From an uncultured Acidobacteriota bacterium (GTDB taxonomy: Bacteria; Acidobacteriota; Terriglobia; Terriglobales; Acidobacteriaceae), in the NCBI GenBank assembly GCA_963801615.1, contig CAWDFM010000004.1, forward strand, positions 58,167 through 122,166: a stretch of DNA of 64,000 nt, written 5' to 3'. The translations under genes and the position numbers were made by a program. This document shows, one piece after another, positions 35,506-58,631 of the stretch; within the stretch, counting starts at the first letter, position 1; each line of letters begins with the position of its first letter. The notes beneath the pieces are model-generated. The model searched no databases. It saw only the letters and a list, made by a program, of their open reading frames with translations, and was not told the DNA's origin.

Positions 35506-35588
35506 AACAAATATTGGCAAAAAGGGGGCCAAGGCGGTGCAATCTCGGTGAGGCTGCACCGCCTCTTGAACAAAAAGAAAGTAAAGAC

Positions 35589-35744: not shown

Positions 35745-37070
35745 ATGATCAGCCACACCGCGATCTTTATTCGCGCGAGCGCCCGCGGTTGGCGCCGCTT
35801 CGTTATCGCTGCCGCGGCAATTGTTCTCGCCGTCCTCATCTGCAGCGACGCCTCCTCCGCGTACTCCGTCCTGACCCACGAGGAAATCGTAGATCTGTTG
35901 TGGACTGCCGAGATCCGGCCCCTGCTCCTGCAACGTTATCCCGGACTGTCGGAGGAGCAGATCACCGAAGCCCATGCCTACGCCTACGGAGGCGCGGTCA
36001 TTCAGGATCTGGGCTATTACCCGTTCGGCAGCACAGGGTTCAGCGACCTGGTGCACTACGTTCGCAGCGGAGACTTTGTTCGCGAACTGCTGCTCGAAAG
36101 TGAGGATGTCGACGAGTACGCGTTCGCGCTGGGCGCACTGTCGCACTATGCCTCGGATATCGCGGGGCATCCGGCAGTCAACCAGGCAGTCGCCATCGAG
36201 TATCCCAAGCTACGCGCAAAATATGGTAAGTCCGTCCGCTATGCCCAGGATAGGACCGCTCACCTCAAAACGGAGTTCGGATTTGACACCGTGCAGGTTG
36301 CAAAGAATCGCTATGCGTCGCAGCAGTATCACGATTTCATTGGCTTCCAAGTGTCCAAATCTTTACTGGAACGGGTATTTCCTGTGGTCTATGGAATGCA
36401 GTTGAAAGACGTGCTGACCCATGAAGACTTGGCGATCGGCTCGTATCGGTTCGCGGTAAGCCGGATGATTCCTGAGATGACCCAGGTCGCGCTGCAAACA
36501 CATAAAAAGGAACTGGTGCGCGAGACTCCGAATTTCGCGAAGCGGAAGTTCCTCTATCGTCTATCGCGCTCCGATTACGAAAAGCAGTGGGGAAAAGACT
36601 ACAAAAAGCCCGGCGTGGGCACCCGCATCTTATCGACGCTCTTGCGATACATGCCGAAAGTCGGTCCCTTCAAAGGCTTGGCGTTCAATAATCCGACTCC
36701 CAAAACTGAGGATCTCTATTTCAAAAGCATCAATAGGACGGTCGACCAGTATCGGGTCTTTCTCGAGCAAGTGCGCAACGACAAACTTGTCCTTCCCAAC
36801 TGCGATCTCGACAGTGGGCTGCCGACCACGGCTGGGGAATACTCGCTCACGGACAGCGCGTACGCGAAGTTGCTGGTTCAATTGTCGGACCGAAAGTTCA
36901 ATCTCACATCGCCGGAACTGCGCGACAACATCCTGCAGTTCTACTCAGCGGCCTGGGCCGCGAGCGAAACGAAAAAAGATCCGGCTCATTGGCATAGTGT
37001 GCTGACGTCTCTGGATCAACTAGGATCCGCAGTGTTGATTTCGACGCGCCTCGGTGGTTCTAGCAAATAG
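35745..37070 (+). CDS. zinc-dependent phospholipase C-like protein
   Basis: Signal/anchor, then YSVLTHEEIVD and HYASDIAGHPAVN His/Asp motifs. Confidence 0.65.
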   Translation: MISHTAIFIRASARGWRRFVIAAAAIVLAVLICSDASSAYSVLTHEEIVDLLWTAEIRPLLLQRYPGLSEEQITEAHAYAYGGAVIQDLGYYPFGSTGFSDLVHYVRSGDFVRELLLESEDVDEYAFALGALSHYASDIAGHPAVNQAVAIEYPKLRAKYGKSVRYAQDRTAHLKTEFGFDTVQVAKNRYASQQYHDFIGFQVSKSLLERVFPVVYGMQLKDVLTHEDLAIGSYRFAVSRMIPEMTQVALQTHKKELVRETPNFAKRKFLYRLSRSDYEKQWGKDYKKPGVGTRILSTLLRYMPKVGPFKGLAFNNPTPKTEDLYFKSINRTVDQYRVFLEQVRNDKLVLPNCDLDSGLPTTAGEYSLTDSAYAKLLVQLSDRKFNLTSPELRDNILQFYSAAWAASETKKDPAHWHSVLTSLDQLGSAVLISTRLGGSSK

Positions 37071-39133: not shown

Positions 39134-39825
39134 GGGGGAGTTCTCCTGGCGCAGAGTTCACGCCGGGCGAAGTATATGCCTCCCCGAGGCACGTATGCGC
39201 CCGGGAGCTGTGGATAACTTCTGATTTCTCGAACAGCTTCAGGAAAGGGCGACGCCGAGATGAGAAAGTGCACGCCTATTTTGCTCGCGCGCGTGCGGGA
39301 ACTCGTAAATGGAGGATCTTCGGGGCGACGGCCGGGCACATTGTGGCTATGTCCGGGAGGTAGAGCACGAACAACCTCGCCTCTGCAGACCACTTCACCC
39401 GTCGACAAGCCTGTGATTTCCGGTGGCAGCACGAGATTAATTTCAAGCTGCTACGGCCGCAGCACCGTCCGCTGTTTCGAGCACTGTGTAACCTCGGTTC
39501 TGCAGGTAGTGGCGAGACAGGTACATACACCTTCCAGACGAGCATTGGTTTGTGATTCAGCTCACACCCACTGGTGATCAACTGCAAAAGAAAGCTCTTC
39601 ATTCACTGGCTTTCGAATCCTGTGCACAGCACAATTCTATTTTCCATTCGGCAGCTTACCAAGAATACTGAAGACGCTGATCGACGAACCAAACTCGGCT
39701 AAATCTCGCGAAAACATACACATGGAATCGGCAGGTATTTTTCTCCGCATCCTGATGCAGGGCAGAGTTCGCCGAGCGCCGTTATGGTGCTCTCCCGGAA
39801 CAGCTATTCGCACCACTTTTGAAAT

Positions 39826-39856
39826 AGTGATTGAAATCACATTCAAGTGTGATTTC
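39826..39856. promoter_or_regulatory. two overlapping palindromes, one CRP/FNR-type (aGTGA-N6-TCACa)
   Basis: aGTGAttgaaaTCACa at 39826..39841 overlaps gaaatcaca-ttcaag-tgtgatttc at 39833..39856. They lie about 105 to 135 nt upstream of the Cyc2-like gene. Confidence 0.4.
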
Positions 39857-39961: not shown

Positions 39962-41317
39962 ATGAGGAAACTGGGGATATTCCTGCTTACGGTCATTCCG
40001 GTTGTGATTCTGTTGTCGGTGGCGGCTCTGAACCCGCCGAAGGTGGAGGCGGTTCCGAGTTATGCGCGGCAAACCGGATTAGCTTGCAGTGGCTGCCATT
40101 ACACTCCTCCGGAGCTAAATCCGGCGGGACGCAGATTCAAGTTGTTGGGATATGTAGACAAAGCGGATGAGACGAAGGTGGTGAAAGCCGATCCGGGGAA
40201 AAAGCGAGCGCCGCTCGATCTGCTGTCCTCATTACCCCTTTCCGCCTGGCTGGAGACTTCGTTCACTTCCACGAAATCAACCGTGCCCGGAACACAGAAT
40301 GGCAGCATTGAAATTCCCCAAGATGTATCCTTATTCATCTCCGGCGCCTGGACCACTCACGTGGGCAGTTTCATGCAAATGACTTACGACACGCAGGACG
40401 ATCACTTCAGTATGGATAACACAGACGTCCGCTACGCGAATAAGACCACGGTTGGGGGTAAGGAACTCGTATTCGGTCTGAACCTCAACAACAATCCCAC
40501 CATAGAAGATCTTTGGAATAGCACACCGGGATGGGGTTATCCGTTCGTGGCCGATGATTTTGCTCCGACTCCCACGGCTGCGCCCATCGTTGCCAGTTTG
40601 GGCCAGGATGTCGCGGGTTTCGGTGGCTATGCCATGTGGAACAACCACTTGTATGCCGACGCGACGTTCTACCGGTCCGCACACGTCGGAGGAACTCAGC
40701 CGACGGACGGAGTCGATTTTGGCTACAACATCCGCGGCCTGGCTCCGTACTGGCGAGTGGCATGGCAGCAGTTGACGGGAAAGACGCAGTACGAGTTCGG
40801 CACTTACGGCATGCACATGCGTTCCAGCCCGGGGGCCATTACCGGCCTGGAAGATAACTACACCGACTGGGCGATCGACACTCAGATCGATCGGACCTTG
40901 TTCAGAACCGACGTGCTTTCGCTGCGTGGCTCGTACATCCGCGAAAATTCGAATCTCGTCGCCAGCACCGCCTTGGGTGCGGCATCGGCGGGCAGTCATC
41001 ATTTGAATACTCTTTTCGCCAACGCCGAATACCATTTTGGCAATCGCGCGTCGGGCGCTTTGGGTTGGTTCGACACGAGCGGCACGGTTGACCCCCTCCT
41101 CTTTACTCAGGCGGCGGTGAGCGGAAGCGCCAATGGGGATCCGAGGGGCTCGGGTTACATCGCGAACTTCTCGTACTGGCCGTGGCAGAACCTGCAACTC
41201 TCGGCGCAGTACACCGGATACACCCGCTTCAATGGCGGCAGCACGAACTACGATGCCGCCGGCCGCAATGCAAGCGGGAACAACACCGTCTACCTGGTAG
41301 CAAGATTCATTTTCTGA
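39962..41317 (+). CDS. fused monoheme cytochrome c / outer-membrane beta-barrel protein (Cyc2-like architecture)
   Basis: Signal/anchor, then PSYARQTGLACSGCH with a single CxxCH at 40084..40098. This is followed by about 400 aa of an alternating beta-strand-like sequence ending ...VYLVARFIF (C-terminal aromatic residue). Confidence 0.75.
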   Translation: MRKLGIFLLTVIPVVILLSVAALNPPKVEAVPSYARQTGLACSGCHYTPPELNPAGRRFKLLGYVDKADETKVVKADPGKKRAPLDLLSSLPLSAWLETSFTSTKSTVPGTQNGSIEIPQDVSLFISGAWTTHVGSFMQMTYDTQDDHFSMDNTDVRYANKTTVGGKELVFGLNLNNNPTIEDLWNSTPGWGYPFVADDFAPTPTAAPIVASLGQDVAGFGGYAMWNNHLYADATFYRSAHVGGTQPTDGVDFGYNIRGLAPYWRVAWQQLTGKTQYEFGTYGMHMRSSPGAITGLEDNYTDWAIDTQIDRTLFRTDVLSLRGSYIRENSNLVASTALGAASAGSHHLNTLFANAEYHFGNRASGALGWFDTSGTVDPLLFTQAAVSGSANGDPRGSGYIANFSYWPWQNLQLSAQYTGYTRFNGGSTNYDAAGRNASGNNTVYLVARFIF

Positions 41318-41365
41318 TGCAGACACAGATATTCCACTAGGCAAATGCAAAAGGAGAACAAGGCC

Positions 41366-41947
41366 ATGAGATGCAAAGGATTCGTACTGATGCTGGTGGT
41401 GAGTGCGTTGGGCGTGGCAGCTTCGGCGGGCGATATCGAGGGTAAGGTCAGCGGCATGAAAGGGAAGTCGGTAGTTTATGTCGATGCCATTGCAGGCAAG
41501 ACATTTCCCGCTCCCAAGGATCATCCAGTGATGGATCAAAAGGGACTGATGTTTGTCCCGCACATTATGCCGGTTCAGCAGGGGACCACGGTGGAGTTCC
41601 TGAACAGCGACACGGTACAGCATAACGTGTTCTGGACCGCGATCGGCTCAGATAAGAAGGCCGGACACAATCTTGGAACGTGGCCGAAGGGCGAGAAGCG
41701 CCCCTACACGTTCGACAAGCCTGGTGTCGTGCCGGTGCTCTGCAATGTTCATCCGGAGATGGCGGGATACGTCGTTGTCAGCCCTACCCCGTACTTCGCC
41801 GAAACGGATGACAGCGGAAGCTACAAGATCAAAGACGTTCCCGACGGCAGCTACACGGTCACAGTTTTTCATGAAGGTGCGAAGAACCAATCCAAGCCCG
41901 TGACGGTTGCTGGCGGCGGCAAGGCGGATTTCACCCTGACCAAGTAA
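41366..41947 (+). CDS. periplasmic type-1 copper protein (amicyanin-type cupredoxin) with C-terminal CarboxypepD_reg-like domain
   Basis: Signal peptide MRCKGFVLMLVVSALGVAASAG. Ligands are QHNV (His) and C-N-V-H-P-E-M (C-x2-H-x2-M). C-terminal DDSGSYKIKDVPDGSYTVTV. aaggag RBS. Confidence 0.8.
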   Translation: MRCKGFVLMLVVSALGVAASAGDIEGKVSGMKGKSVVYVDAIAGKTFPAPKDHPVMDQKGLMFVPHIMPVQQGTTVEFLNSDTVQHNVFWTAIGSDKKAGHNLGTWPKGEKRPYTFDKPGVVPVLCNVHPEMAGYVVVSPTPYFAETDDSGSYKIKDVPDGSYTVTVFHEGAKNQSKPVTVAGGGKADFTLTK

Positions 41948-41957
41948 GTAGAACAGG

Positions 41958-41996
41958 TGCGGGGAGTGTGACCGCCGCTCCCCGCATTTGGTTTTA
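41958..41996 (+). terminator. intrinsic terminator/attenuator-like hairpin inside the cluster
   Basis: 9-bp stem tgcggggag/ctccccgca, 11-nt loop, followed by tttggtttta. Confidence 0.5.
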
Positions 41997-42043
41997 CGCA
42001 TTTTGGGACGTGTCGACGTGCAGGCAAAGGGACAGAAACCGCG

Positions 42044-43999
42044 ATGCTGAAGCGCTTCAAGAACAAGAAGGTCGACGCCGATTGGCTGCACACGAATTTC
42101 CCCTGCATGATGGCCTGTCCGGCGCACACCAATGCCGGGCGCTATGTAGGCCTGATTGCCGAGGGACGGTTCGAAGAAGCCTACCGGCTGGCGCGTGATC
42201 CGAATCCGCTGGCCAGCATTTGCGGGAGAGTCTGTGCGCATCCTTGCGAAACGGCGTGCAGGCGCGGCGAGATCGACCGGCCAATTTCCATTCGCGCCCT
42301 GAAGAGGTTTCTCACCGAGCAGTACGGGCCCGAATCGAAACGCCCTCTCAACATCAACGAAGGGCGCGCTCAGAAAAAACTTCCTTACAAAGTAGCGGTA
42401 GTCGGCGGCGGGCCAGTAGGGCTCTCCGCAGCCCATGATCTGGCGCTCATGGGATATGCGGTCACTATTTTCGAAGCTGCGCCCGTCGCGGGGGGAATGC
42501 TGTACCTGGGCATTCCGGAATACCGTTTACCCCGCGACGTGGTCGAAGCGCAGGTGCGAGAGATCCTCGAAACTGGAGACATCACCCTCAAGTTGAACCA
42601 GGCGGCCGGACGCGACTTCAAGATTTCTGATCTGCGGCAGCAAGGGTTCGATGCGCTGCTGGTCGCCGTTGGTGCGCACCGCAGCCGGGACTTGAGCATC
42701 CCGGGCGTCGATCTCGATGGCGTTCACAAGGGGATCGATTTTCTTCTGAACGTAAATCTTGGCTACAAGTTCACGATCGGTAAGAAGGTGATTGTGATTG
42801 GCGGCGGCAATGTCGCCATGGATGTGGCTCGTTCGGCAGCGCGCGAAGTTGTGAAACAGCATGCGGGCGGAGTCGAAGACGTCGAGCCCTCGGCCGAGAA
42901 TGTCTCCGCCGTTGCCACAAAGGAAATGGTCGATATCTCTCTGTCCGCATTGCGCATGGGCGCGCAAGAAGTCAACCTCGTCTGCCTGGAGCGGCGCTAT
43001 GAGATGCCGGCGGCTTTGGAAGAGATTGAAGAGGCCGAGGAAGAGGGCATTCGAATTCATCCCGGCTTCGGGCCCAAGCGGGTTGTCGGAAAAGACGGGA
43101 AGGTAGCGGCTCTCGAGGTGCTCAAGACCAAGTGGGTCTTTGATCAGAACGGTCGCTTCAATCCTGCGTTCTACGAGAACAGCGAGAGCCAGATCGAGTG
43201 CGACACCATCATCATGGCGATCGGGCAGGCGCCCCGGCTCGACTTTCTAACTCCGGAAGATAAGGTTGAGATTTCGCCTCGCGGCCTGATTGCGGTGAAC
43301 CCGCAGACGCTGATGACTTCCGCAGCGGGAATTTTTGCCGGAGGCGATTGCGTGTTTGGACCGCGGTTGATTATCGACAGCGTCGGTGACGGGAAGCGCG
43401 CAGCCGTTGGGATTGATGAATTCCTGCGGGGCGGAAAGCACCCTGAGCCGATCATTGAGGTCGAAATTCTCAAGCGGCATGCCATGCCGTTGGGCTATTT
43501 AGATATCGATCGGCAGCCCGTACCCATGCTTCCTCTCGAACGGCGCACGGGCGTGACCGAGGTTGAGATCGGTTACAACGCAACCTCGGCCATGGTCGAG
43601 GCCCAGCGCTGCCTGCACTGCTGGACGAACACAATCTTCGAAGGCACTCCGGAAGACGGAAGCATGTGCATCCTCTGCGGCGGCTGCGTCGATGTTTGTC
43701 CAGAGAATTGCCTGGAACTGGTGTCGCTTGATCGCATCGGCTTCGAACCGGAAGCGGTGCAGCACATTCGTGAGAACCAGGAATGTTTTGGAGTGGAGTT
43801 CGACGAAGTGGCGGCTGATGAACTTGGAGTAGTGATGGGGGCAGCCATGTTGAAGGACGAAACTCGGTGTATCCGTTGTGGCCTATGCGCCATGCGGTGT
43901 CCGGTGGGGACGATCACGATGGAATCGTACAACCTGGTTCCGGCGGAGCCGACGGGATTGATCTCAGTGGCCGCAATTGGGGCCGGATTGCAGAGGTAG
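42044..43999 (+). CDS. GltD-like FAD/NAD(P)-binding oxidoreductase with N-terminal FeS region and C-terminal 2x[4Fe-4S] ferredoxin domain
   Basis: CMMACPAH...CGRVCAHPCETAC, then the dinucleotide motifs VAVVGGGPVGLSAAHDL and VIVIGGGNVAMD. C-terminal CILCGGCVDVCP and CIRCGLCAMRCP. Confidence 0.85.
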   Translation: MLKRFKNKKVDADWLHTNFPCMMACPAHTNAGRYVGLIAEGRFEEAYRLARDPNPLASICGRVCAHPCETACRRGEIDRPISIRALKRFLTEQYGPESKRPLNINEGRAQKKLPYKVAVVGGGPVGLSAAHDLALMGYAVTIFEAAPVAGGMLYLGIPEYRLPRDVVEAQVREILETGDITLKLNQAAGRDFKISDLRQQGFDALLVAVGAHRSRDLSIPGVDLDGVHKGIDFLLNVNLGYKFTIGKKVIVIGGGNVAMDVARSAAREVVKQHAGGVEDVEPSAENVSAVATKEMVDISLSALRMGAQEVNLVCLERRYEMPAALEEIEEAEEEGIRIHPGFGPKRVVGKDGKVAALEVLKTKWVFDQNGRFNPAFYENSESQIECDTIIMAIGQAPRLDFLTPEDKVEISPRGLIAVNPQTLMTSAAGIFAGGDCVFGPRLIIDSVGDGKRAAVGIDEFLRGGKHPEPIIEVEILKRHAMPLGYLDIDRQPVPMLPLERRTGVTEVEIGYNATSAMVEAQRCLHCWTNTIFEGTPEDGSMCILCGGCVDVCPENCLELVSLDRIGFEPEAVQHIRENQECFGVEFDEVAADELGVVMGAAMLKDETRCIRCGLCAMRCPVGTITMESYNLVPAEPTGLISVAAIGAGLQR

Positions 44000-44011
44000 C
44001 TCGGGGCACTT

Positions 44012-44503
44012 ATGGAAGAAGAGAAGAAAGTGGAGTTGGAGAGTGATCTAAATCGGCGGCAGTTTTTCCTGAAGATGGGCCTGGGCTCGCTCACTATTGC
44101 GGCTGCGGGAACCGCAGCATTTGCGTATCAATATTTGGAACCCAACGTGTTATTCGAGCCCTCTCCGGTTGTGAATGCCGGGAAGCCTGATCGATATCCG
44201 CTCGATTCCGTGACCCTGGATGTGAATTCCGGGATTTACATCATTCACACGCAAGAGGGCTATTTCTCTCTCAGCGCGGTGTGCACGCACCTGGGATGTC
44301 TCACGGCATGGAAGCCGGAACTCAACATGATTGCCTGTCCGTGTCATGGCAGCAAGTTCGCGCAGAGCGGGAAGAAGATTGAAGGCCCGGCTCCTAAGCC
44401 GCTTCCGTGGAAGCGGATCTGGCTCAATGACGATGGCGACCTGCTGGTGGATCGTTCGACCGATGTCCCGCCGCTGGCGCGGGATTCCTTTGTGAGGGTC
44501 TGA
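44012..44503 (+). CDS. Rieske [2Fe-2S] subunit, Tat-exported
   Basis: [10 protein letters not shown] Tat motif. Cluster boxes CTHLGC and CPCHGS. Confidence 0.9.
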
Positions 44504-44504
44504 A

Positions 44505-45347
44505 ATGGCGAAAACGGTAGACCAGTATTTTGACGGCTTGCGCGAGACGCGTGTTTGGCGGTCCATTTTCCGCAGCGGGACGGGGTCGAGCACGCTGAAG
44601 CGGGCGCTGGCCATTCAGCAAAACGTGTTCCTGCACCTGTTCTCGACCAAAGTGCGCACGCGCATGTTGAGCTTCAGCGCCACCTGGTATCTAGGGACAC
44701 TGACGCTCGGCACATTTCTGATTCTGGTTGCGACCGGTATTCCCCTGATGCTTTATTACCATCCCTCGGCGCCGCAGGCGTACGCGGACACGAAAGATCT
44801 TCAGTTCGTGGTTTCTTCCGGATTATTTCTGCGCAACCTTCACCGCTGGTCTGCGCACGCGATGGTGTTTCTCGTCTTCGCGCACATGTTCAAAGTGTTT
44901 TATCGCGGCGCCTATCGCCCTCCGAGGGAATTCAACTGGGTGATCGGCATTGTTCTTCTCCTTATCACTCTGCTGCTCAGCTACACCGGATATCTGCTGC
45001 CGTGGGATCAATTAGCGTATTGGGCCATCACGGTGGGATCGAACATCGCATCCGCGGTTCCGGTAATCGGAGACAAGATTCACTTCCTTCTGCTCGGCGG
45101 GAACGCCGTCAATGCAAATGCACTGCTTCGGTTCTACGTGCTGCACTGCATGATTCTGCCGCTGGTAGCGATGTTCTTTGTCGCGATTCATTTCTGGCGC
45201 ATTCGCAAAGATGGCGGACTTTACGCTCATTCCAGTGAGCCTGCGGTTCTGCGAGGAAAGGCCAACAACACTGGGAGCGAGATTCCCACTTCTCGCAAAG
45301 GCAGCGAGAAGTGGGGCACCCAGGCGGAAGCCACGGAGGCGAAATAG
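44505..45347 (+). CDS. cytochrome b, N-terminal four-helix part (b6-like)
   Basis: Helix B has [18 protein letters not shown] (His pair 14 positions apart). Helix D has [18 protein letters not shown] (His pair 15 positions apart). [10 protein letters not shown] motif present. Confidence 0.9.
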
Positions 45348-45349
45348 CT

Positions 45350-46057
45350 ATGGCCGAAAGCAAAGACTTCATCGCCGGCGTGGATTCGAATGCCAAGAAG
45401 TCTCCGCGCCGCATTGTGTTCATCACACGGCGTACTTCTGCGCAGGTGAAGGTAGAGACGGAAGATCAGGTGCAAACCTTCCCAGAGGTCTTGTTTCGCG
45501 CGGCCGTTGCGATTCAGTTGCTGGCTATCGTCCTGGTGTGGACCGCGCTGCTGTTCAATGCGCCTCTGGAAGGACTGGCCGATCCCTCGCACACTCCGAA
45601 TCCCGCGAAGGCACCGTGGTACTTTCTGGGGCTGCAGGAGATGCTGCATTATTTCCCGCCAGTGGTCGCGGGGGTCCTGGTCCCCGGCTTAGTCGTGATG
45701 GCGCTGATCGTCATTCCATATTTCAAGGTCAACATCGAGGCTGACGGATTCTTTCTGAGGGACCGGCAGAAGCGGCTGATGATCTTCTACGCGGTGACTG
45801 CGTTACTCGTCATTTTCCTCGGGTTGTTCCACGTGCTCGTGGGATTGATACCGACGCTGATCATGGCCGGGTTGATGCTACTGGCTGCGCAGAGTTCTCC
45901 CCAGTCTCCATCCGCGTTCCGGCGGTATCTAGCAGAACGGCCGCTTTCCTATTGGGTGATGACCTGGTTCTTATTCGAACTGGTGGTGCTTACGGCCATC
46001 GGTACGTTCTTCCGCGGTCCAGGGTGGTCGTTTATCTGGCCGTGGCAAGGTTCATAA
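45350..46057 (+). CDS. cytochrome b C-terminal part (subunit IV-like)
   Basis: NPAKAPWYFLGLQEMLHYFPP (PEWY-equivalent region) plus additional TM helices. Confidence 0.8.
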   Translation: MAESKDFIAGVDSNAKKSPRRIVFITRRTSAQVKVETEDQVQTFPEVLFRAAVAIQLLAIVLVWTALLFNAPLEGLADPSHTPNPAKAPWYFLGLQEMLHYFPPVVAGVLVPGLVVMALIVIPYFKVNIEADGFFLRDRQKRLMIFYAVTALLVIFLGLFHVLVGLIPTLIMAGLMLLAAQSSPQSPSAFRRYLAERPLSYWVMTWFLFELVVLTAIGTFFRGPGWSFIWPWQGS

Positions 46058-46070
46058 GGGTGCGGCGATC

Positions 46071-48155
46071 ATGAAACGAAAAATTACGTCGCTGTGGCAG
46101 AAGTTGTTTGGAGACAGCGTGCGGGCGTTTGGCGTCGTCAGCCTGATTTTCCTGGCGTCCATGGCGGTGGCCCCCTCCAAGAATTTCTTCAGCGAGTGGA
46201 GACATTATCAGCGGGGTTATCTGAGGATGATTCGCAATCGCAGCGAAGCCAACACGCTGCGGCGGCATTTCCAGGGTGGGATCCAGCAGATCTGGCTGCC
46301 CGAGTTGGGCGAGGTGGATCGTTGCACGAGCTGCCACGTGGGATTGAAAGAAGGCGCGCTGGCCGATGTCGCCACTCAGCCCTACCGCCCACATCCTGCC
46401 ATTCCACACAAAGGGGAGCAGTTCGGATGCACCGTCTGTCATCGGGGACAAGGCGCGGCCACCACGGTGGAAGAGGCACACAACAGCACGCTGGCCTGGG
46501 AGCAGCCAATTCTGCCCGCGAAATACATCGAGTCTTCCTGCGGTGAGTGCCATCGCGGCCCATTGCCGGGCACCCCTCAACTAAATCAGGGCCGAAATCT
46601 GCTGTCTCGGGAAGGATGCGTACACTGCCACACCGTCAAGCTGCCCGACGGCAGCACGATGAAAGCCACGGATAATCCCCCGTCGCTCTCGCATGTTGCC
46701 GATAAGACTACGCGCGAATGGATTTTTGCCTGGCTGAAGGATCCGCAGTCTTATGCCTCGACAGCCACGATGCCGAACTTCAAGCTAAAGGACGAGGACG
46801 CGCGAGATATCTCTGCATTCCTCATCGCGAACAGCACCCCAGTGCAGGGGGACGCCCTTACGCTCGGGGCGAAAGCGTCGTCTGACCCGAGCGCTGGAGC
46901 AAGTCTCTATGGAGAATCTTTCTGCGCAACCTGTCATGCGGTGCAGAATGCCGCCGGCAACATGGTGGGTGGAGACGTTGGACCAGAGTTGACGCGCGTG
47001 GGCAGCAAAGTGAAGGCCGAGTGGGTGCAGGGCTGGCTGAAGAATCCGCGCGTCTACAATCCGGCCACCGCGATGTCGCATTACCGCTTCACGGATGCGC
47101 AGATTGCGACGCTATCTGGATTCCTGCTGGGCAAAGCGGATTCCGATCTCCTGGCAAATGTGCACCTCGAAGCGGCAACACCCGAGCAGATCACGCACGG
47201 CAAACGGCTGGTATCAGATTACGGCTGCGACGCATGCCATGAAATCGCGGGCATCAAGAAGCCGGAGAACTTTGCGCCGGAACTCAGCCGGATTGGCGGC
47301 AAGCCCGTTACGCAACTGATCTTCTTGCCCGGCATGCCGCACACGCTCCCAGATTACATCGCGGGCAAGATTAAACAGCCACGGGCGTTTGCTCCCGGGC
47401 TGAAGATGCCGCAATACACGTTCACTGCGGCACAGATTGACTCGCTTACAACCGCTCTGCTGTCGTTGAATGAACGCTCGTATACGCTGCCGCCGTCACT
47501 CGCGGTGGCGGCCAAGCCGGAATCCGATTACCAGCCGGCGGGCAAGCCCGGAAAGCTGATGACTGATCTGGCCTGTTTCAGCTGCCACCGCATCAACGGT
47601 CACGGGTCCGAGATGGCTCCCGACCTGACTTGGGAAGGCAGCTCGGTACAGCGGGAGTGGCTGGTGCAGTTCCTGAAAAATCCTGGGACGCTGCGTCCGG
47701 CGTTGATTCGCCGCATGCCGCGCTTCAACTTTACGGATGCCGAAATCAATGAGCTCACTGACTACATCATGACCGTGTATCAGAGTCCGGCCGTGGATCG
47801 CGATTCCATGCCTCTGAGCGGATATCCGCAGGGGCAAATCGAACTCGGCAAGCAACTGTTTTACGGCAAGTATGCGTGCCAGGGATGCCACATTGTCGAT
47901 AGCAAAACCGACAAGGGCTACATCGGACCCACGCTGTCGCATGTTGGGTCGCGGCTTACTGCGGCTTGGATCTATCAATGGCTGAAGAATCCGCAAGCCC
48001 TCCGGCCGGGAACGCTGGAGCCGAATCGCGCCATGAGCGACGAGGATGCGCGGGCGCTGACCGCGTTCTTGATTTCGCAAAAAGGGGAGAAGTTGCCCGG
48101 TGCCGCAAAGGCCGCGAGAAGCGGGGCCGCCAAGCCGGAGGTCGCAAAGAGATGA
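46071..48155 (+). CDS. membrane-anchored octaheme cytochrome c
   Basis: N-terminal TM helix. Eight CxxCH motifs counted by hand: CTSCH, CTVCH, CGECH, CVHCH, CATCH, CDACH, CFSCH, CQGCH. The last four sit in class-I-like repeats (W..WLKNP). Confidence 0.85.
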   Translation: MKRKITSLWQKLFGDSVRAFGVVSLIFLASMAVAPSKNFFSEWRHYQRGYLRMIRNRSEANTLRRHFQGGIQQIWLPELGEVDRCTSCHVGLKEGALADVATQPYRPHPAIPHKGEQFGCTVCHRGQGAATTVEEAHNSTLAWEQPILPAKYIESSCGECHRGPLPGTPQLNQGRNLLSREGCVHCHTVKLPDGSTMKATDNPPSLSHVADKTTREWIFAWLKDPQSYASTATMPNFKLKDEDARDISAFLIANSTPVQGDALTLGAKASSDPSAGASLYGESFCATCHAVQNAAGNMVGGDVGPELTRVGSKVKAEWVQGWLKNPRVYNPATAMSHYRFTDAQIATLSGFLLGKADSDLLANVHLEAATPEQITHGKRLVSDYGCDACHEIAGIKKPENFAPELSRIGGKPVTQLIFLPGMPHTLPDYIAGKIKQPRAFAPGLKMPQYTFTAAQIDSLTTALLSLNERSYTLPPSLAVAAKPESDYQPAGKPGKLMTDLACFSCHRINGHGSEMAPDLTWEGSSVQREWLVQFLKNPGTLRPALIRRMPRFNFTDAEINELTDYIMTVYQSPAVDRDSMPLSGYPQGQIELGKQLFYGKYACQGCHIVDSKTDKGYIGPTLSHVGSRLTAAWIYQWLKNPQALRPGTLEPNRAMSDEDARALTAFLISQKGEKLPGAAKAARSGAAKPEVAKR

Positions 48156-48886
48156 AGCACTTTGCTTCGGAAGTAACAATTCTGAGTATGGCTTTGCTGG
48201 CTACTTCCTGTTCGCACAAATCCGTGTCGACGCCGGTTATTAAGCCTACAGCGTTCGGCGCCGCGATCGTTGAGTCCAGCGGAGGCAAGCAGCTGGCACA
48301 GACGGGTGCGTTGTTGGCGCAACCCGTGGTCGTGCTGGTCAACGACGCGCAGGGAACGGGCGTTTCTGGCGCGCTCGTCGATTTCGAGGCCGCGCCTGGA
48401 GTGACATTTGATCCTGCCAGCGCGCTGACCGATTCCAGTGGCCAAGTCACCACCAACGTATCCCTTGGCGGGATGGCTGGCCGCTACCAGATCACGGCTT
48501 CTACCTTCGACAAGTCGCACAGAAAAGTGGAATTGAAAATCGAAGAGATCGCGCTTGGTTATCAGCAGGCGCTGGGCAGGCATCTCAACGATCAGTACTG
48601 CGATCGCTGCCACAACGCCGAATCCACTGTCGAACGCGTTTCCAATTACGACAACCTGGAGGTCAAGCCGCATCCGTTCACCGAAGGGTCTACGCTGAAC
48701 AAGATGAGCGACGCAGATCTCACAGCTATCATCATTTATGGAGGACCAGCCCTTAGCAAGTCAGCGCTGATGCCGGGCTGGGGGAACACGCTCAGCAGCG
48801 CCGATGTGCAGGCGCTCATTTCCTATATCCGGGCGATTTCCGATCCTCCATCCCGAAGCGCTGGCCCGGTTTACGCGAAGAATTAG
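48152..48886 (+). CDS. lipoprotein with Ig-like (Big_1-type) domain and C-terminal monoheme cytochrome c
   Basis: Lipobox LLATSC, VVVLVNDAQGTGVSGALVDF...SSGQVTTNV, then CDRCH ... MPGWG. ATGA overlap with the octaheme gene. Confidence 0.8.
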   Translation: MKHFASEVTILSMALLATSCSHKSVSTPVIKPTAFGAAIVESSGGKQLAQTGALLAQPVVVLVNDAQGTGVSGALVDFEAAPGVTFDPASALTDSSGQVTTNVSLGGMAGRYQITASTFDKSHRKVELKIEEIALGYQQALGRHLNDQYCDRCHNAESTVERVSNYDNLEVKPHPFTEGSTLNKMSDADLTAIIIYGGPALSKSALMPGWGNTLSSADVQALISYIRAISDPPSRSAGPVYAKN

Positions 48887-48993: not shown

Positions 48994-51900
48994 TTATGCT
49001 GCGGGTGCAGATTCCTGTCGCGACAGATCTCTTTCTCGCAGCCAAGTGAAGATCACCGGAGTCACAATCAGAACATGCAGTAGGGAGCTGACCATGCCTC
49101 CGAGCACAGGGGTTGCGAGTGGCTTCATCACTTCAGCGCCGGTGCGGGTAGACCACATAATCGGTAAGAGCCCTGCTACAACCGTGGATACGGTCATGAT
49201 CTTGGGACGTAAACGCAACAAGGCGCCTTCCATAACCGCTTCACGCAATCCCTGTACCGTCAGTCCGCCCATCGCGGCTCGCTTTCGCTCCACCGCCTCT
49301 TCCAAATAGATAACCATCACTACACCGGTCTGCACCGCGGTGCCGAACAGGGCGATGAAGCCGACCCAAACGGCAACGGAGAAGTTGTACCCAAGCAGCT
49401 TCAGGAGAAACACTCCGCCGCTCAATGCAAAAGGTACGGCGAGGATCACGTGCGAGGCCTCTTTGAACGAGTTGTAGGTTTTGTAGAGCAGAAGAAAGAT
49501 GATCAGGAATACGACTGGAATGACGAGTTCAAGCCTTTTTTTGGCACTAATCTGGTTCTCGTACTGGCCACTCCACTCGATGTAGTAGCCTGGCGGCATT
49601 TTCACTTCGCGGGCGACAGCATGCTGCGCCTCGTCCACGAACCGGCCAACGTCGCGGCCGCGCACGTTCATCAGCACACTTCCTCGCAGCAAACCGTTTT
49701 CGCTGCTGATCATGGATGGCCCCATCACCACGCCAAGGTCTGCTACTTCTCCAAGAGGAATCTGAGCGCCGTTGCTGGCCGTGACCAGTACGTTGTTTCG
49801 CAACTGTTCGGGATTTTCGCGGAAATCAGGGGAGTAACGAACTCTGACGGGTAGACGTTGGCGACCGTCAATTGCGGTGGTAAGGTTCTTGCCGCCAATC
49901 GCGGTCTCGATCACGTCCTGCACGTCGCCGACGTTTATACCGTAGCGCGCGGCGGCTTCGCGATTCACCTTGATTTCCAGGTACGGAGCGCCGGTGATGC
50001 GCTCGGCATAGAGGTCAGCGACACCAGGAACCGGCCGCAGAGCCCGTTCGATTTCAGTCTCCTTCTGTTCGATGGTCGCGAGGTCGTTGCCAAAGACCTT
50101 TACTCCGACCTGCGTGCGAATGCCGGTCGAGAGCATGTCGATGCGGTTGCGGATGGGCTGGGTCCAGATGTTGGTCACACCCGGCAGACGGAGCTTCTCG
50201 TCCAGCCTTTGCAGGATCGTTTCTTTGGTGGCGCCAGCGGGCCATTTGTCCTTAGGCTTGAAGTTGATGACGGTTTCAGTCATGTTCACTGGCGCGGGAT
50301 CGATGGCGCTTTCTGCGCGACCGATTTTGCCAACGACGCTATCGACCAGCGGATCTTGCGCAATGATTTTGTCCTGCCACCGAAGAATCTCGGTTGCCTT
50401 GGTGAGCGAAATGCTCGGGTCGGTAATCGGCATGAACAGCGCAGTCTCTTCGTCGAGTGGCGGCATGAACTCCGAGCCGATCGTGGTGGCCAGCCAGAGC
50501 GCCGAGGCAAAGATTGCAACTGCCGCACTCAAAGTCACAATCCTGTGCTTTAAAGCCCAGCGCAGTACGGGTTTGTAGATCATTCCCAAGGCGTGCATCA
50601 CGGGATTCGCGTCCTCGCGGTGCAGCTTTCCACGGATCAGGAAGGTGCAAAGCACCGGGACCAAGGTGACCGCGATGAACGTAGAGCACACCATGGCGAA
50701 AGTTTTGGTAAAGGCCAGAGGGTGAAACATCTTGCCTTCCATCCCAGTCAGTGCAAACACGGGTACGAATGCCAAAATGATGATGGTCATGGCGAAGAAA
50801 ATCGGTCGACCGACTAATTTGGCTGCTTCGAGCGTGATCTGGCTAATCGCTGACTTGTATTCGCCATGTTCTTCGTAATAACGCTCTGCGTGCCGCAGCA
50901 CGTTTTCAGTCATCACGATGCCAGCATCGACCAACACTCCAATCGCAATGGCGATCCCTCCGAGTGACATGATGTTGGAAGAGATGTCCGCGTAGTGCAT
51001 GAAAAGAAATGATCCAAGTACCGCAAGCGGCAATGGCAGAGTCACAATGAGGATGCTGCGGAAGTGCCACAGGAAGATCACGTGCGCGAGCGTGACCAGA
51101 GCGATCTCTTCGAACAGCGCCGACTTTAGCGTGTTCACAGCATGAACGATCAAAGTACTGCGGTCGTAAAAAGGAACGATGTGGACACCTTTAGGTAGCC
51201 CTGGCTCGAGCGCTGCAAGTTTCGTTTTGATCCCGCTAATAACCTCCTGCGCGTTCGCCCCGTTGCGGATGACGACCACTCCGCCCACAACATCCTTGCC
51301 GTCCTTGTCGAGAACGCCGCGGCGGAATTCCGGTCCCAAATGGACGTTGGCAACGTTGCGGATGTAGACCGGTGTGCCACCCGTGGCGGTGAGGACGATA
51401 TTCTCAAGGTCGGCCGGCGAGCCAATCAAGCCAATCCCGCGGACTGCCATCTCCTGGTCGCTTGCTTCAATCACTTTTGCGCCAACATTGGTGTTACTGC
51501 GCTGGACGCCGTCGATTATGGTGCGCAAAGGAATGTTGTAGGCGCGCAGTTTGATAGGATCAACGTCGATCTGATATTGGCGTACCCAACCGCCAATGCT
51601 GGCCACTTCTGCCACGCCGGAAACAGAATTCAGCTGGTACTTGATGAACCAGTCCTGAAGGGAGTGCAGGGTTCCGCCGTCGTAGGGGCCCTCGACCGTG
51701 TACCAGAAAACTTGGCCCACGCCGGTTGCATCCGGACCTAGAACAGGTACGACTCCTTCCGGCAGGAAAGCCGATGCCAGGTTCAGCCGCTCCAAGACCC
51801 GTGTGCGCGCAAAATAGGGGTCAATCTTGTCCTGGAAAATGATGTTGATCATTGAGAAACCCAAGGCCGAGGAGGAGCGCACGTCTCTCACTCCCGCCAG

Positions 51901-52125
51901 ACCTTGCAAGTTCACAGTCAACGGATACGTGATCTGGTCTTCCACTTCCTGAGGACTGCGGCCTGCCCAGTCGGTGTAGACAATCACTTGGTTCTCGCTG
52001 AGATCAGGAATGGCGTCGATTGGCGTCCTTAGGAGTGCCCAGTAACCCCAAACAGCCAGCAGCGCGTAAGCCAGCAAAATGAGGCCGCGGTTCTTGAGCG
52101 AAAATTCAATGAGCCGATTGATCAT
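48994..52125 (-). CDS. CusA/CzcA-family heavy-metal efflux RND transporter
   Basis: 1043 aa. [24 protein letters not shown]-terminus and 12-TM HME-RND organisation. Confidence 0.95.
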
Positions 52126-58621: not shown

Positions 58622-58631
58622 GAGCGCAGCA

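Follow-up and report, generated by a model that had tools for sequence, protein, structure and literature searches.

An eight-gene cluster joining a Cyc2-family cytochrome-porin to a flavoprotein-bearing Rieske/split-cytochrome b complex in Terriglobia

Introduction

Eight co-directional genes at positions 39962-48886 of the window (the whole 64,000-nucleotide stretch of acidobacterial DNA that was analyzed) encode an outer-membrane cytochrome-porin, a copper protein, a Rieske/split-cytochrome b complex with its own NAD(P) flavoprotein, and two further c-type cytochromes. In our reading, they form a single redox module that spans the cell envelope in Terriglobia (Acidobacteriota). No published account of the combination of Cyc2, a cupredoxin and a flavoprotein-bearing Rieske/cytochrome b complex was found in the literature searched. 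The cluster encodes a possible electron path between the outer-membrane cytochrome-porin and the quinol-oxidizing complex with its flavoprotein, by way of the copper protein and nine hemes; it is widespread across many soil Acidobacteria and merits experimental work.

Organization of the cluster

The features of the region are as follows.

39551..39566, no strand assigned: a further palindrome of the CRP type, TGTGATTCAGCTCACA, imperfect and some 400 nt ahead of gene 1
39826..39841, no strand assigned: operator of the CRP type, AGTGATTGAAATCACA (consensus TGTGA-N6-TCACA), lying 136 nt before the ATG of gene 1
39962..41317, plus strand: gene 1, member of the Cyc2 family in which a monoheme cytochrome is joined to a 16-strand outer-membrane porin, 451 aa
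41345..41947, plus strand: gene 2, secreted copper protein of type 1 that ends in a CarboxypepD_reg beta-sandwich, 200 aa
41948..41997, plus strand: terminator- or attenuator-like GC-rich hairpin with a U-rich tail, directly 3′ of the gene 2 stop
42044..43999, plus strand: gene 3, cytoplasmic NfnB/GltD-like FAD/NAD(P)H flavoprotein, 651 aa, no transmembrane segment
44012..44503, plus strand: gene 4, Tat-exported Rieske [2Fe-2S] protein, 163 aa
44505..45347, plus strand: gene 5, cytochrome b6-like subunit of four helices, extended at both termini, 280 aa
45350..46057, plus strand: gene 6, subunit-IV-like membrane protein with the Qo motif APWY, 235 aa, four to five hydrophobic segments
46071..48155, plus strand: gene 7, membrane-anchored octaheme cytochrome c, 694 aa
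48152..48886, plus strand: gene 8, probable lipoprotein that carries a single c-type heme in addition to a Big_1 Ig-like domain, 244 aa

The open reading frames, the Pfam and NCBIfam domains and the cofactor motifs all agree with the eight co-directional genes and the domain assignments first proposed. The successive gaps from gene 1 to gene 8 are 27, 96, 12, 1, 2, 13 and −4 nt. Two starts are better placed inside the longest open reading frame, namely that of gene 6 at ATG 45350 (2 nt past the gene 5 stop) and that of gene 8 at ATG 48152 (an ATGA overlap with gene 7). Antisense open reading frames in the region (e.g., 40331-41623 on the minus strand) were rejected as shadows of the high-GC coding strand.

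The domain search returned no Pfam match for gene 1. Its product, which has a signal-peptide-like N-terminus and a C-terminal Phe, contains a single CxxCH (CSGCH) at residue 42 within the motif AVPSYARQT-GLA-CSGCH-YTP-PEL, in agreement with the published Cyc2 consensus (Keffer, 2021; PMC8406198), in which AxPx[F/Y]ARQT precedes CxxCH and PxL follows it. An AlphaFold2 model (pLDDT 85, pTM 0.82) comprises 16 strands, and its top PDB folds are 16-strand general porins. In motif, length, single heme and strand number, gene 1 matches the published sequence and architecture of the Cyc2 family, and the Cyc2-like assignment stands. Gene 2 carries Copper-bind and CarboxypepD_reg domains (Pfam) and matches amicyanin and plastocyanin weakly, far under the equivalog cut-offs. 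Its copper motif is C-x2-H-x2-M with an upstream His, spaced as in amicyanin, and the ligands His93, Cys133, His136 and Met139 (HCHM) are invariant in all 61 homologs.

Genes 3-7 encode a Rieske/split-cytochrome b complex of the “APWY”/anammox type. The flavoprotein of gene 3 contains Fer4_20, Pyr_redox_2 and two Fer4 domains (PRK12771, 454 bits), with two N-terminal and two C-terminal Cys motifs of the [4Fe-4S] type; 18 of its 21 Cys residues are invariant in 49/49 orthologs. Its nearest solved structures are NfnB-like modules (9bov, 9n5u, 8oh5_C, 4ylf_B and 5jca_L), followed by GltD. The Rieske protein of gene 4 has an RRQFF Tat motif, a Rieske domain (Pfam) and the boxes CTHLGC and CPCHGSKF. 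Gene 5 belongs to the Pfam Cytochrome_B/b6 family (NCBIfam ExtP, 257 bits) and aligns all four heme-ligand His residues with b6; going by b6 topology, its extensions lie on the cytoplasmic side. Gene 6 matches Cytochrom_B_C (Pfam) and ExtQ (62 bits), and its APWY motif, which defines a clade of its own (PMC4122944), is invariant in 56/56 loci. Together with the S-F of Rieske box II, this motif assigns the complex to class “Mid+” (about 260 mV) in the scheme of PMC4122944.

Gene 7, recognized by multiple cytochrome c domains in Pfam and NCBIfam, has an N-terminal hydrophobic anchor and eight CxxCH motifs (residues 85, 120, 157, 183, 285, 386, 502 and 603), arranged as four closely spaced hemes and then four class-I-type domains. 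Each of these motifs is invariant wherever aligned (54-57 loci). Gene 8 combines a lipobox-like ...TSC with Big_1 and Cytochrome_CBB3 domains (Pfam), and its single heme motif, CDRCH, is conserved in 56 loci.

Conservation among related loci

The cluster was compared with the 80 closest species-representative loci, in which ligands were counted only where the alignment covers the position. The Cyc2-like gene is linked to the Rieske/cytochrome b complex in 55 of them. The canonical order is found in 44 loci, with all eight genes detected in 43 and the remaining locus (L045) ending at a contig edge; nine are permuted, with the Cyc2 gene at the 3′ end (six complete, three cut by a contig end); and two (L032 and L033) carry the cluster without gene 3. 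The flank comparison of these loci identified no conserved gene, oxidases included, beside the cluster. Because the same genes recur in the same order among unrelated flanks, the arrangement is not due to chance. Many of the source samples are peat and other soils.

The failure of gene 3 to co-vary with the Rieske/cytochrome b genes had been named beforehand as an outcome that would overturn the original prediction. The prediction stands on this point, since the divergence of gene 3 tracks that of genes 4-8 (rho 0.64-0.88). The N-terminal 43 residues of gene 5 are kept in every locus bearing gene 3 and are unrelated in both loci lacking it, and gene 3 would dock on this b subunit. Given the two loci without gene 3, the remaining genes of the cluster can do without the NAD(P) module.

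Other arrangements of Cyc2-like genes were also observed. Gene 1-2 pairs stand alone in L005, L006, L019 and L025, and paralogous Cyc2-like genes are linked to a different Rieske/cytochrome b complex. In L083, a Cyc2-like gene and a cytochrome c gene adjoin a Crp/Fnr-family regulator and a cytochrome bd oxidase; in L084, a distant Cyc2-like gene occurs with cytochromes c, two Rieske/cytochrome b-c complexes and a caa3 oxidase.

Operator and hairpin

A CRP-type operator precedes the first cluster gene in about 85% of the loci. The palindrome occurs in 45 related loci, upstream of gene 1 in the canonical order or of gene 2 in the permuted one, and conservation extends to flanking bases on which the search placed no constraint (G-1 in 46/46, C+12 in 45/46). 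As a control, the regions ahead of internal genes yielded 0/53 (gene 3), 2/66 and 0/58. The second palindrome, TGTGATTCAGCTCACA, departs from TGTGAY-N4-RTCACA at one position; four such sites occur in the window against 0.43 expected, a number reached in none of 100 shuffles. A CRP/FNR-family regulator appears to set transcription from the conserved operator.

The hairpin after gene 2 has a minimum free energy of −46.3 kcal/mol over 111 nt (z = −3.4). Nearly all canonical loci have a hairpin of like form but different sequence in the gene 2-3 gap, whereas four of the six permuted loci that are complete have a weak one or none. Given this conservation, genes 1-2 and genes 3-8 may be expressed in unequal amounts, and the hairpin may tune their ratio. 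It could also be a true terminator, which would count against a single module.

Direction of electron flow

We tentatively favor, at somewhat less than an even chance, a module that runs forward, passing electrons from quinol to a high-potential acceptor and exchanging the second electron with NAD(P). Menaquinol would be oxidized at the Qo site. The first electron would leave the Rieske cluster by way of the c hemes and then the copper protein and so arrive at Cyc2, the lipoprotein cytochrome of gene 8 and the blue copper protein of gene 2 bridging the complex to the outer membrane. Cyc2 would then reduce a soluble extracellular high-potential acceptor, for which Fe(III) complexes of acidic soil are the most plausible candidate, or the first electron may instead reach an oxidase encoded elsewhere. 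A corresponding path from quinol through bc1, c4, rusticyanin and Cyc2 to Fe(III) has been proposed for anaerobic Acidithiobacillus ferrooxidans, and acidophilic Acidobacteria reduce Fe(III) (PMC8790237). The second electron would pass through the two b hemes and the flavoprotein to NAD(P)+, as in the bifurcation that has been put forward for the anammox homologs of the complex; NAD(P)H may instead feed the b hemes and the n-side quinone site. We infer the direction and the thresholds: with menaquinone, NAD(P)+ reduction would need an acceptor at more than about +0.17 V, a limit that rises to about +0.35 V when the proton-motive force is maintained as well. The chain would be reversible in principle.

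By our inference from the Q-cycle as summarized in PMC12954380, an uphill route that leads from Fe(II) to NAD(P)H within the cluster alone, originally offered as one option, contradicts the logic of that cycle. Electrons entering via the Rieske protein would reverse the Qo reaction and draw an electron from the b hemes, so that the flavoprotein must donate, oxidizing NAD(P)H; for NAD(P)+ to be reduced, the periplasmic chain must act as a sink.

Several points run counter to the forward reading. PMC8406198 names three tested members of the Cyc2 family, all of them Fe(II) oxidases, which points to inward flow; Kao and Hunte tie the APWY clade to reverse operation; the gene set of L084 fits Fe(II) input to an oxygen-respiring chain; two loci do without gene 3; the heme cn of the anammox complexes is lacking; and a heterotroph has no obvious need for quinol-derived NAD(P)H. 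Also weighed, though we consider it rather unlikely, is a role as an Fe(II)-input hub in microaerobic mixotrophy, in which Cyc2 would oxidize dissolved Fe(II) and deliver electrons through the copper protein and c hemes to an oxidase elsewhere, with oxygen as the sink, while the forward Rieske/cytochrome b complex would add quinol electrons to this periplasmic pool, whether or not NAD(P)+ is reduced. Besides the activity of the characterized proteins, this role is favored by FeGenie-based surveys, which already count Acidobacteriota MAGs as cyc2 iron oxidizers, by the caa3 and bd oxidases near Cyc2-like genes in L084 and L083, and by the peat and soil origin of many samples. Fe(II) and low oxygen are expected together in waterlogged soils. 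However, no conserved oxidase adjoins the eight-gene cluster, no cultured member of Terriglobia is, to our knowledge, an Fe(II) oxidizer, and the linkage of Cyc2 to a quinol-oxidizing complex rather than to an oxidase is left unexplained.

A reverse, confurcating mode appears improbable. Electrons from a periplasmic donor, Fe(II) or other, would enter via the Rieske protein and join NAD(P)H electrons from the b hemes to reduce menaquinone at Qo, assisted by the membrane potential. Such a mode has been proposed for the APWY clade, for example for the p-cresol methylhydroxylase cluster of Geobacter metallireducens (PMC4122944), and would be the only Q-cycle-compatible fate of electrons entering at the Rieske protein. 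Nevertheless, it would spend NAD(P)H on lifting high-potential electrons into the quinone pool with little or no energetic gain over a cytochrome oxidase, and with menaquinone could work only if the potential of the donor lay under roughly +0.17 to +0.3 V.

Finally, it is very improbable that genes 1-2 and 3-8 are independent neighbors, or that gene 3 encodes a soluble enzyme unrelated to the membrane complex: the terminator-like hairpin, the solitary gene 1-2 pairs and the clusters lacking gene 3 would suit such a separation, but adjacency is kept in 55/80 loci (including the nine with gene 1 relocated and differing flanks), the operator lies upstream of the first gene and never of gene 3, gene 3 diverges in step with genes 4-8, its presence goes together with the conserved N-terminus of the b subunit, and paralogous Cyc2-like genes are tied to another Rieske/cytochrome b complex too.

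Comparison with known systems

In the forward-running module that we favor, the octaheme cytochrome of gene 7 replaces cytochrome c1 or f as the periplasmic partner. The suggested likeness to the anammox complexes holds as kinship: the top PDB matches of the Rieske protein are 9rk4 (Kuste4569, E 4e-23) and 9rk3 (Kustd1480), both from Kuenenia. For those complexes, bifurcation has been proposed, with Rieske potentials above +300 mV and a modeled FeS wire (PMC12954380). The likeness does not extend to identity, because the cysteine for heme cn is absent: in the alignment with b6, gene 5 has Tyr62 at the position of b6 Cys35. The anammox complexes contain heme cn whereas the present one has no site for it, and its n-side electron path may therefore differ from theirs.

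Gene content and organization of the cluster

ORF calling places eight plus-strand ORFs at 39962-48886, with successive gaps of 27, 96, 12, 1, 2, 13, and −4 nt from gene 1 to gene 8. The starts of two genes were set from homologous loci and the sequence itself: gene 6 begins at ATG 45350, 2 nt past the gene 5 stop, and gene 8 at ATG 48152, in an ATGA overlap with gene 7.

Genes of the cluster (39962-48886, plus strand)
Gene 1, plus strand: 451 aa, no Pfam match, signal-peptide-like N-terminus, single CxxCH at residue 42, C-terminal Phe
Gene 2, plus strand: secreted cupredoxin with a CarboxypepD_reg beta-sandwich and amicyanin-like Cys-x2-His-x2-Met spacing
Gene 3, plus strand: Fer4_20 and Pyr_redox_2 domains with two Fer4 motifs, 21 Cys, without a membrane segment
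Gene 4, plus strand: Rieske protein with Tat motif RRQFF
Gene 5, plus strand: cytochrome b6-like protein
Gene 6, plus strand: subunit-IV-like protein
Gene 7, plus strand: N-terminal anchor and eight CxxCH
Gene 8, plus strand: lipobox-like ...TSC, Big_1 domain, one CxxCH

Pfam, NCBIfam, and motif counts bear out each of the gene-by-gene assignments of the original prediction, and all cofactor ligands of the cluster are invariant between species in the alignment of orthologues. Large antisense ORFs also occur here, as shadows of the GC-rich coding strand. The GC content and skew of the cluster equal those of the remainder of the window, and base composition, compared in this way, gives no support for horizontal transfer as an island. 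The tRNA and Rfam scans of the whole window detected nothing, and an exact-sequence look-up of gene 3 returned no identical record.

Gene 1 as a Cyc2-type protein

Cyc2 proteins are recognized by a signal peptide, one CXXCH only, a minimum of 365 aa, and a 16-strand porin (Keffer et al. 2021, PMC8406198), together with the motifs AXPXFAR[Q/K][T/Y] just ahead of the heme site and PXL about four residues after it (PMC8406198). In gene 1, residues 4-22 at the N-terminus are hydrophobic, the only CxxCH lies at residue 42, and the whole protein contains two Cys; its motif reads AVPSYARQT-GLA-CSGCH-YTP-PEL, with Tyr for the Phe of the published motif and Phe in some orthologues. An exhaustive search gathered a family of 2,370 related clusters among 50%-identity representatives, across which the consensus is AVPSFARQTG..C..CHT.FPELT.FGR, and a profile built from the distant relatives picks up proteins whose names assign them to Acidiferrobacteraceae and other Gammaproteobacteria. 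The AlphaFold2 model (36 diverse sequences; pLDDT 85, pTM 0.82) has exactly 16 strands in a barrel preceded by a small helical heme domain, and Foldseek matches it to 16-strand general porins at E about 1e-9. With signal peptide, CXXCH, motifs, length, and strand number all present, as had been anticipated in calling it Cyc2-like, gene 1 is, in sequence and predicted architecture, a member of the Cyc2 family.

A predicted Rieske/cytochrome b complex with a built-in flavoprotein

The two best PDB matches of the gene 4 Rieske protein, 9rk4 (Kuste4569, E 4e-23) and 9rk3 (Kustd1480, E 2e-18), come from the two Kuenenia complexes that bear an NAD(P) oxidoreductase. Gene 5, aligned to cytochrome b6, has four of the four heme-ligand His, and Tyr62 occupies the position of b6 Cys35, the heme cn ligand; this region reads W-Y-L-G-T in 48 of 57 gene 5 orthologues and has Cys in none. 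His44 of gene 5 (NVFLH), a position placed among these orthologues and not against the Kuenenia sequences, is kept in all orthologues that the alignment covers. In the anammox complexes, an N-terminal His has been proposed as the ligand of an extra interfacial heme b (Kartal 2013; Hauser 2025). Gene 6 (235 aa) comprises a Cytochrom_B_C domain with 4-5 hydrophobic segments, and the Qo motif in gene 6 is APWY in 56 of 56 loci. Box II of the Rieske protein is CPCHGS[K/R/H]F; an “S-F” box is “Mid+”, about 260 mV, in the scheme of Kao and Hunte 2014 (PMC4122944). The APWY clade was drawn from Deltaproteobacteria, Chloroflexi, Nitrospirales, Planctomycetes, and Actinobacteria, a list from which Acidobacteria are absent (PMC4122944). 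The present complex bears the Qo motif by which that clade is recognized, and a mid-to-high-potential Rieske signature. Gene 7 has eight conserved CxxCH and a single N-terminal anchor, and the Pfam and NCBIfam scans of the cluster found no homologue of cytochrome c1 or cytochrome f. Lacking such a homologue and having APWY instead of PEWY or PDWY at the Qo site, the complex is not a canonical bc1 or b6f, in keeping with the original prediction.

The best relatives of gene 3 are NfnB-like NADPH/FAD modules, with GltD next. An added C-terminal two-cluster ferredoxin domain brings its FeS motifs to four, as many as make up the modelled electron wire of the anammox subunits. The identification of gene 3 as an ordinary GltD or as the beta subunit of a formate dehydrogenase, labels given to it in some sources, was rejected: its surroundings lack a catalytic partner subunit, and the co-divergence of gene 3 with the membrane complex contradicts that identity as well. 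According to Dibrova et al. (PMC5600118), such oxidoreductases are frequent companions of the short cytochromes b of this subfamily, and Lücker et al. (PMC3578206) reported a Rieske/b6/subunit IV/octaheme operon from Nitrospina, Kuenenia, and Methylomirabilis.

Distribution and linkage of the eight genes

Genes 1 and 3 have thousands of homologues each, of which the best 120 are 80-99% (gene 1) and 85-93% (gene 3) identical; named sources among these best 120 are Terriglobia, Acidobacteriia, and Candidatus Sulfotelmatobacter MAGs from soil and peat. On these matches, the window is assigned to an uncultured bacterium of the class Terriglobia (Acidobacteriota). Soil and peat metagenomes hold thousands of copies of both genes at 80-93% identity, and one gene 3 cluster at 90% identity contains 1,485 sequences. 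In a species-level scan with the gene 1 profile (one genome per species), at least 592 stretches in species-representative genomes were found to carry the Cyc2 motif and encode a gene 1 relative. The best 80 of these at least 592 stretches are 56-84% identical to gene 1 and nearly all from Terriglobia; the taxa represented are Acidobacteriaceae, Ca. Sulfotelmatobacter, Terracidiphilus, Granulicella, and Bryobacterales. Close relatives of the cluster all come from MAGs. The arrangement of the 80 loci was assigned by tblastn with all eight proteins.

Arrangement of the 80 closest species-level loci (L numbers are handles for related loci)
Canonical, gene 1 to gene 8: 44 loci (all eight detected in 43; L045 ends at a contig edge)
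Permuted, genes 2-3-4-5-6-7-8-1: 9 loci (6 complete, 3 ending at a contig edge)
Without gene 3: 2 loci
Gene 1-gene 2 pair only: 4 loci (L005, L006, L019, L025)
Gene 1 beside a different complex: 9 loci
Gene 1 without a detectable partner: 7 loci
Too short or ambiguous: 5 loci

The grouping of the eight families in the original prediction thus recurs, in the canonical order, in 44 of the 80 closest loci. The synteny persists where single subunits have fallen to 35-53% identity (L063, L070), and the linkage of gene 1 to the complex is real and old. When every ORF of 150 aa or more in the window and in 82 loci was clustered, with the eight genes and their antisense shadows left out of the count, no flanking accessory gene (oxidase, regulator, heme lyase) was recurrent and no family occurred in more than about 10 loci. 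Within the cluster, the identity of gene 3 to the window copy follows that of genes 4, 5, 6, 7, and 8, with Spearman rho of 0.80, 0.64, 0.81, 0.88, and 0.80, respectively; the corresponding correlation for gene 1 is weaker (rho 0.30-0.48). This co-divergence with genes 4-8 (rho 0.64-0.88) upholds the earlier proposal that the GltD-like gene 3 belongs with the Rieske/cytochrome b genes.

The first ~43 residues of gene 5 are kept in every locus bearing gene 3, even at 57% overall identity. Gene 3 is absent from L032 and L033 (e.g., L033 9974-16759), where the N-terminal segment of the cytochrome b is unrelated to these ~43 residues. By analogy with b6 topology, this N-terminal extension should face the cytoplasm. 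Its sequence pattern is only suggestive of a docking site for gene 3, because the loss of gene 3 and the changed N-terminus represent one evolutionary event.

The Cyc2-like and cupredoxin genes stand alone as a pair in four loci (L005, L006, L019, L025), and a CRP-type palindrome is absent within 400 nt upstream in 4 of 4; the two genes may together form a mobile module. In L065, a contig assigned by binning to Verrucomicrobiia, a 59%-identical Cyc2-like gene occurs with none of the other seven genes, for which horizontal transfer and misbinning are possible explanations.

Other Cyc2-like contexts

A paralogous Cyc2-like gene, 56-62% identical to gene 1, is associated with a different partner complex in L066-L069, L071-L073, L077, and L081. 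Directly downstream of it lie genes for a monoheme cytochrome c, a Rieske protein, and a cytochrome b-cytochrome c fusion (e.g., L072 9932-14064), followed in L072 by ETF and ETF-QO genes. These loci constitute a second, independent linkage of Cyc2 to Rieske/cytochrome b in Acidobacteria, and one MAG, SMAG_U12924, holds both linkage types (L026 and L071). Distant Cyc2-like genes occur in further settings. In L084 (7101-19141), cytochromes c, a distant Cyc2-like gene, a Rieske protein, and a cytochrome b-diheme c fusion adjoin a second Rieske/cytochrome b-c pair and a caa3 oxidase. In L083 (3634-11122), a Crp/Fnr-family regulator lies immediately upstream of a distant Cyc2-like gene and a cytochrome c, with cytochrome bd oxidase genes alongside. 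A PQQ-dependent dehydrogenase with a cytochrome c domain is encoded a few kb upstream of the cluster in two related genomes only (L001/L002 1-3024), and this enzyme might supply electrons to the same carriers from the periplasm.

Regulation and neighbourhood

A 16-bp palindrome, TGTGA(T/C)-N4-(A/G)TCACA, which corresponds to the classical CRP-type TGTGA-N6-TCACA, was found in 45 related loci, in most of them 108-245 nt 5′ of the first gene, namely gene 1 in canonical loci and gene 2 in permuted loci. Bases flanking the search pattern are also conserved, though the search left them free. Upstream of internal genes, the pattern occurs in 0 of 53, 2 of 66, and 0 of 58 cases (background 0.063 per 400 nt).

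Features in and around the cluster
29909-37070, upstream: large group-1 glycosyltransferase, GH130 mannoside phosphorylase, OmpA-domain protein, and zinc-dependent phospholipase C homologue
39551-39566: weaker second CRP-type site
39826-39841: CRP-type site
41948-41997: GC-rich hairpin and U-rich tail directly 3′ of the gene 2 stop, z = −3.4
48994-52125, minus strand: 1043-aa ORF of the convergent operon, putative RND pump by position and size alone
Same operon, minus strand: outer-membrane efflux protein and CusB-like adaptor with a YtkA domain
55235-55612, minus strand: small Cys/His/Met-rich protein of the same operon
55695-55710: perfect copy of the CRP-type palindrome, TGTGACGGAAATCACA
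56936-60194: two adjacent multicopper-oxidase genes (561 and 520 aa)

Hairpins of the same form and different sequence occupy the gap between genes 2 and 3 in nearly all canonical loci, and are weak or absent in 4 of 6 complete permuted loci. Taken together, the operator and the hairpin suggest that a single regulated promoter serves the cluster, with a point of attenuation or mRNA stability following genes 1-2; transcription could also stop altogether at the hairpin. No significant structure was found downstream of gene 8. The scan for sigma-70 promoter and terminator consensus was uninformative, yielding 1 promoter-like site against 4.1 expected and missing the gene 2 hairpin. The CRP-type operator and the hairpin offer concrete entry points to work on regulation.

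The palindrome at 55695-55710 lies ~85 nt upstream of the minus-strand efflux operon that converges on the cluster, and its sequence suggests that one regulator may control both in this genome. The multicopper-oxidase genes just past that operon place the cupredoxin-containing cluster in a copper-related neighbourhood in this genome, a setting that is not kept in related loci. The genes at 29909-37070 appear unrelated to the cluster.

Mechanism and direction of electron flow

From the parts list and its conservation, which are observed, we infer the following mechanism. The redox centres would run unbroken from the cell surface to the cytoplasm, beginning with the Cyc2 heme in the outer membrane, type-1 copper, and one plus eight c hemes, and continuing inward through the Rieske cluster, the Qo site, two b hemes, four FeS clusters, and FAD to NAD(P). 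In the forward direction, electrons would exit via the Rieske protein while the b hemes would carry the second electron inward and gene 3 would reduce NAD(P)+, a scheme that corresponds to the bifurcation proposed for the anammox complexes (PMC12954380). If electrons entered via the Rieske protein, the b hemes would have to supply the Qo site, so that gene 3 could only oxidise NAD(P)H. Because of this constraint, an uphill path from Fe(II) to NAD(P)H within a single complex would not be available, and the self-contained uphill flow that the original prediction had held out as one option would be ruled out by Q-cycle chemistry.

The quinone of Terriglobia is mainly MK-8, and the menaquinone potential is about −74 mV. 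Forward NAD(P)+ reduction with menaquinone would require an acceptor above 2(−0.074) − (−0.320) = +0.17 V, and one of about +0.35 V if a membrane potential is also to be maintained. A Rieske protein of mid-to-high potential, a blue copper protein, and Fe(III) complexes under acidic conditions would all suit this range. For anaerobic Acidithiobacillus ferrooxidans, electron flow from the quinol pool through bc1, c4, rusticyanin, and Cyc2 to Fe(III) has been proposed, and Fe(III) reducers are known among acidophilic Acidobacteria (PMC8790237). Forward operation with an external or periplasmic sink is the reading that we tentatively prefer. A more specific version, unlikely as it stands, is that abundant soil Acidobacteria own a respiratory bifurcase that splits menaquinol electrons between NAD(P)+, supplied via the NfnB-like flavoprotein, and an extracellular acceptor of high potential, reached via the copper protein and Cyc2. 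The flavoprotein may then itself be a second bifurcation-capable site, and the direction of flow might switch with the ambient Fe(III)/Fe(II) potential. Were this so, the intracellular NADPH supply would be directly coupled to cell-surface iron redox chemistry.

Against outward flow stand the Cyc2 proteins so far characterised, which are Fe(II) oxidisers (PMC8406198), and the link drawn between reverse operation and the APWY clade (PMC4122944). The clustering of the distant Cyc2-like gene of L084 with bc complexes and a caa3 oxidase likewise speaks against it, and suits Fe(II) input to an oxygen-respiring chain. A role of the present cluster as a hub for Fe(II) input, with oxygen as the sink, is somewhat doubtful but deserves consideration beside forward operation. 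A confurcating reverse mode, in a complex whose gene 3 could only oxidise NAD(P)H when electrons enter via the Rieske protein, is quite improbable. That the cluster consists of independent units is the least probable reading, set beside its conserved order and the co-divergence of its subunits.

Significance

Full-text literature searches turned up no description of the acidobacterial operon, and what they yielded on cyc2 in Acidobacteriota MAGs was limited to mentions as a marker gene; an Antarctic iron chemolithotroph described in a 2026 paper is unrelated to the cluster. The cluster is of interest because it is abundant in soil and provides a second lineage for the bifurcation hypothesis. 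Terriglobia, in which it is common, rank with the most abundant bacteria of soil. Should extracellular iron be the electron partner of the module, the bacteria that carry it would form a large overlooked guild in the iron cycling of acidic soil and peat, and marker-gene surveys of Acidobacteriota that equate cyc2 with an iron oxidiser would need reinterpretation. The independent lineage also allows quinol bifurcation to NAD(P)+ by a Rieske/cytochrome b complex with a built-in NAD(P) oxidoreductase, an unproven hypothesis, to be tested outside anammox bacteria, and the need for heme cn in bifurcation to be asked.

Comparison with known systems

The Kuenenia complexes Kuste4569-4574 and Kustd1480-1485 (anammox R/b-2 and R/b-3) provide the top two structure matches of gene 4 and contain a related Rieske protein; this is the one subunit compared by sequence, and the others are likened by description. 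Like the present cluster, they have a split b6-like cytochrome b, an enlarged subunit IV with extra helices, a hexa- or octaheme c in place of cytochrome f or c1, and an operon-encoded NAD(P) oxidoreductase with an FeS chain (PMC12954380). By contrast, the heme cn of Kuenenia (CxGG cysteine, helix A) has no counterpart here, where Tyr62 replaces b6 Cys35, and the HAO-like subunit of the Kuenenia complexes is missing. The cluster adds a Cyc2-like porin-cytochrome, a cupredoxin, and a lipoprotein cytochrome c, and its host, unlike Kuenenia, is an acidobacterium of soil that has an ordinary outer membrane and no anammoxosome. The suggested kinship with anammox gene sets holds for the Rieske match, the split cytochrome b, the octaheme protein, and the NAD(P) flavoprotein, and fails at the heme cn site; the cluster appears to share most of the defining features of the anammox complexes, minus heme cn.

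The porin-type outer-membrane conduit of Geobacter sulfurreducens (extHIJKLMNOPQS) is encoded together with the Rieske protein ExtO, the short cytochrome b ExtP, the membrane partner ExtQ, and the lipoprotein cytochrome c ExtS (PMC5877670). The nearest named NCBIfam models of genes 5, 6, and 7 are ExtP, ExtQ, and ExtS, with scores that all fall below the equivalog cut-offs (257 against 290, 62 against 150, and 94 against 100, respectively). The ext cluster is without an NAD(P) flavoprotein, a cupredoxin, or a Cyc2-type fused porin, its porin ExtI being separate from its multiheme cytochromes; judged by these scores, the acidobacterial cluster is not an Ext equivalog. Nitrospina gracilis and Candidatus Methylomirabilis oxyfera have operons that combine b6 and subunit IV with a Rieske protein and an octaheme cytochrome c of atypical type; the relevant passages of PMC3578206 mention no Cyc2 or cupredoxin partner in them. 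NfnB, the NADPH-binding subunit of the NfnAB transhydrogenase, and GltD, the small subunit of glutamate synthase, share with gene 3 the N-terminal two-cluster domain and the FAD/NAD(P) fold. Gene 3 differs from both in its extra C-terminal 2x[4Fe-4S] ferredoxin domain, in having no NfnA or GltB partner, and in its place inside a membrane-complex operon, and its NCBIfam scores all stay under the cut-offs (best PRK12771, 454 against 516).

The Cyc2-rusticyanin-CycA1-bc1 chain of A. ferrooxidans (rus and petI operons) follows the same logic as the cluster, from an outer-membrane Cyc2 through a periplasmic blue copper protein and a c-type cytochrome to a Rieske/cytochrome b complex. It serves Fe(II) oxidation with an uphill branch, and its reversal has been proposed for anaerobic Fe(III) reduction (PMC8790237). 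In A. ferrooxidans, however, the genes lie in separate operons, complex I makes the NADH separately, and the bc1, with PPWY, belongs to the canonical proteobacterial type, whereas the cluster unites a split b6-type cytochrome b with APWY and a built-in NAD(P) flavoprotein at a single locus. The copper proteins differ as well, rusticyanin standing against the amicyanin-like gene 2, which scores far below every NCBIfam equivalog cut-off. By analogy with these systems, the module would work like a fusion of the Acidithiobacillus Cyc2-rusticyanin-cytochrome-bc1 chain with the NAD(P)-linked Rieske/cytochrome b complex of anammox bacteria.
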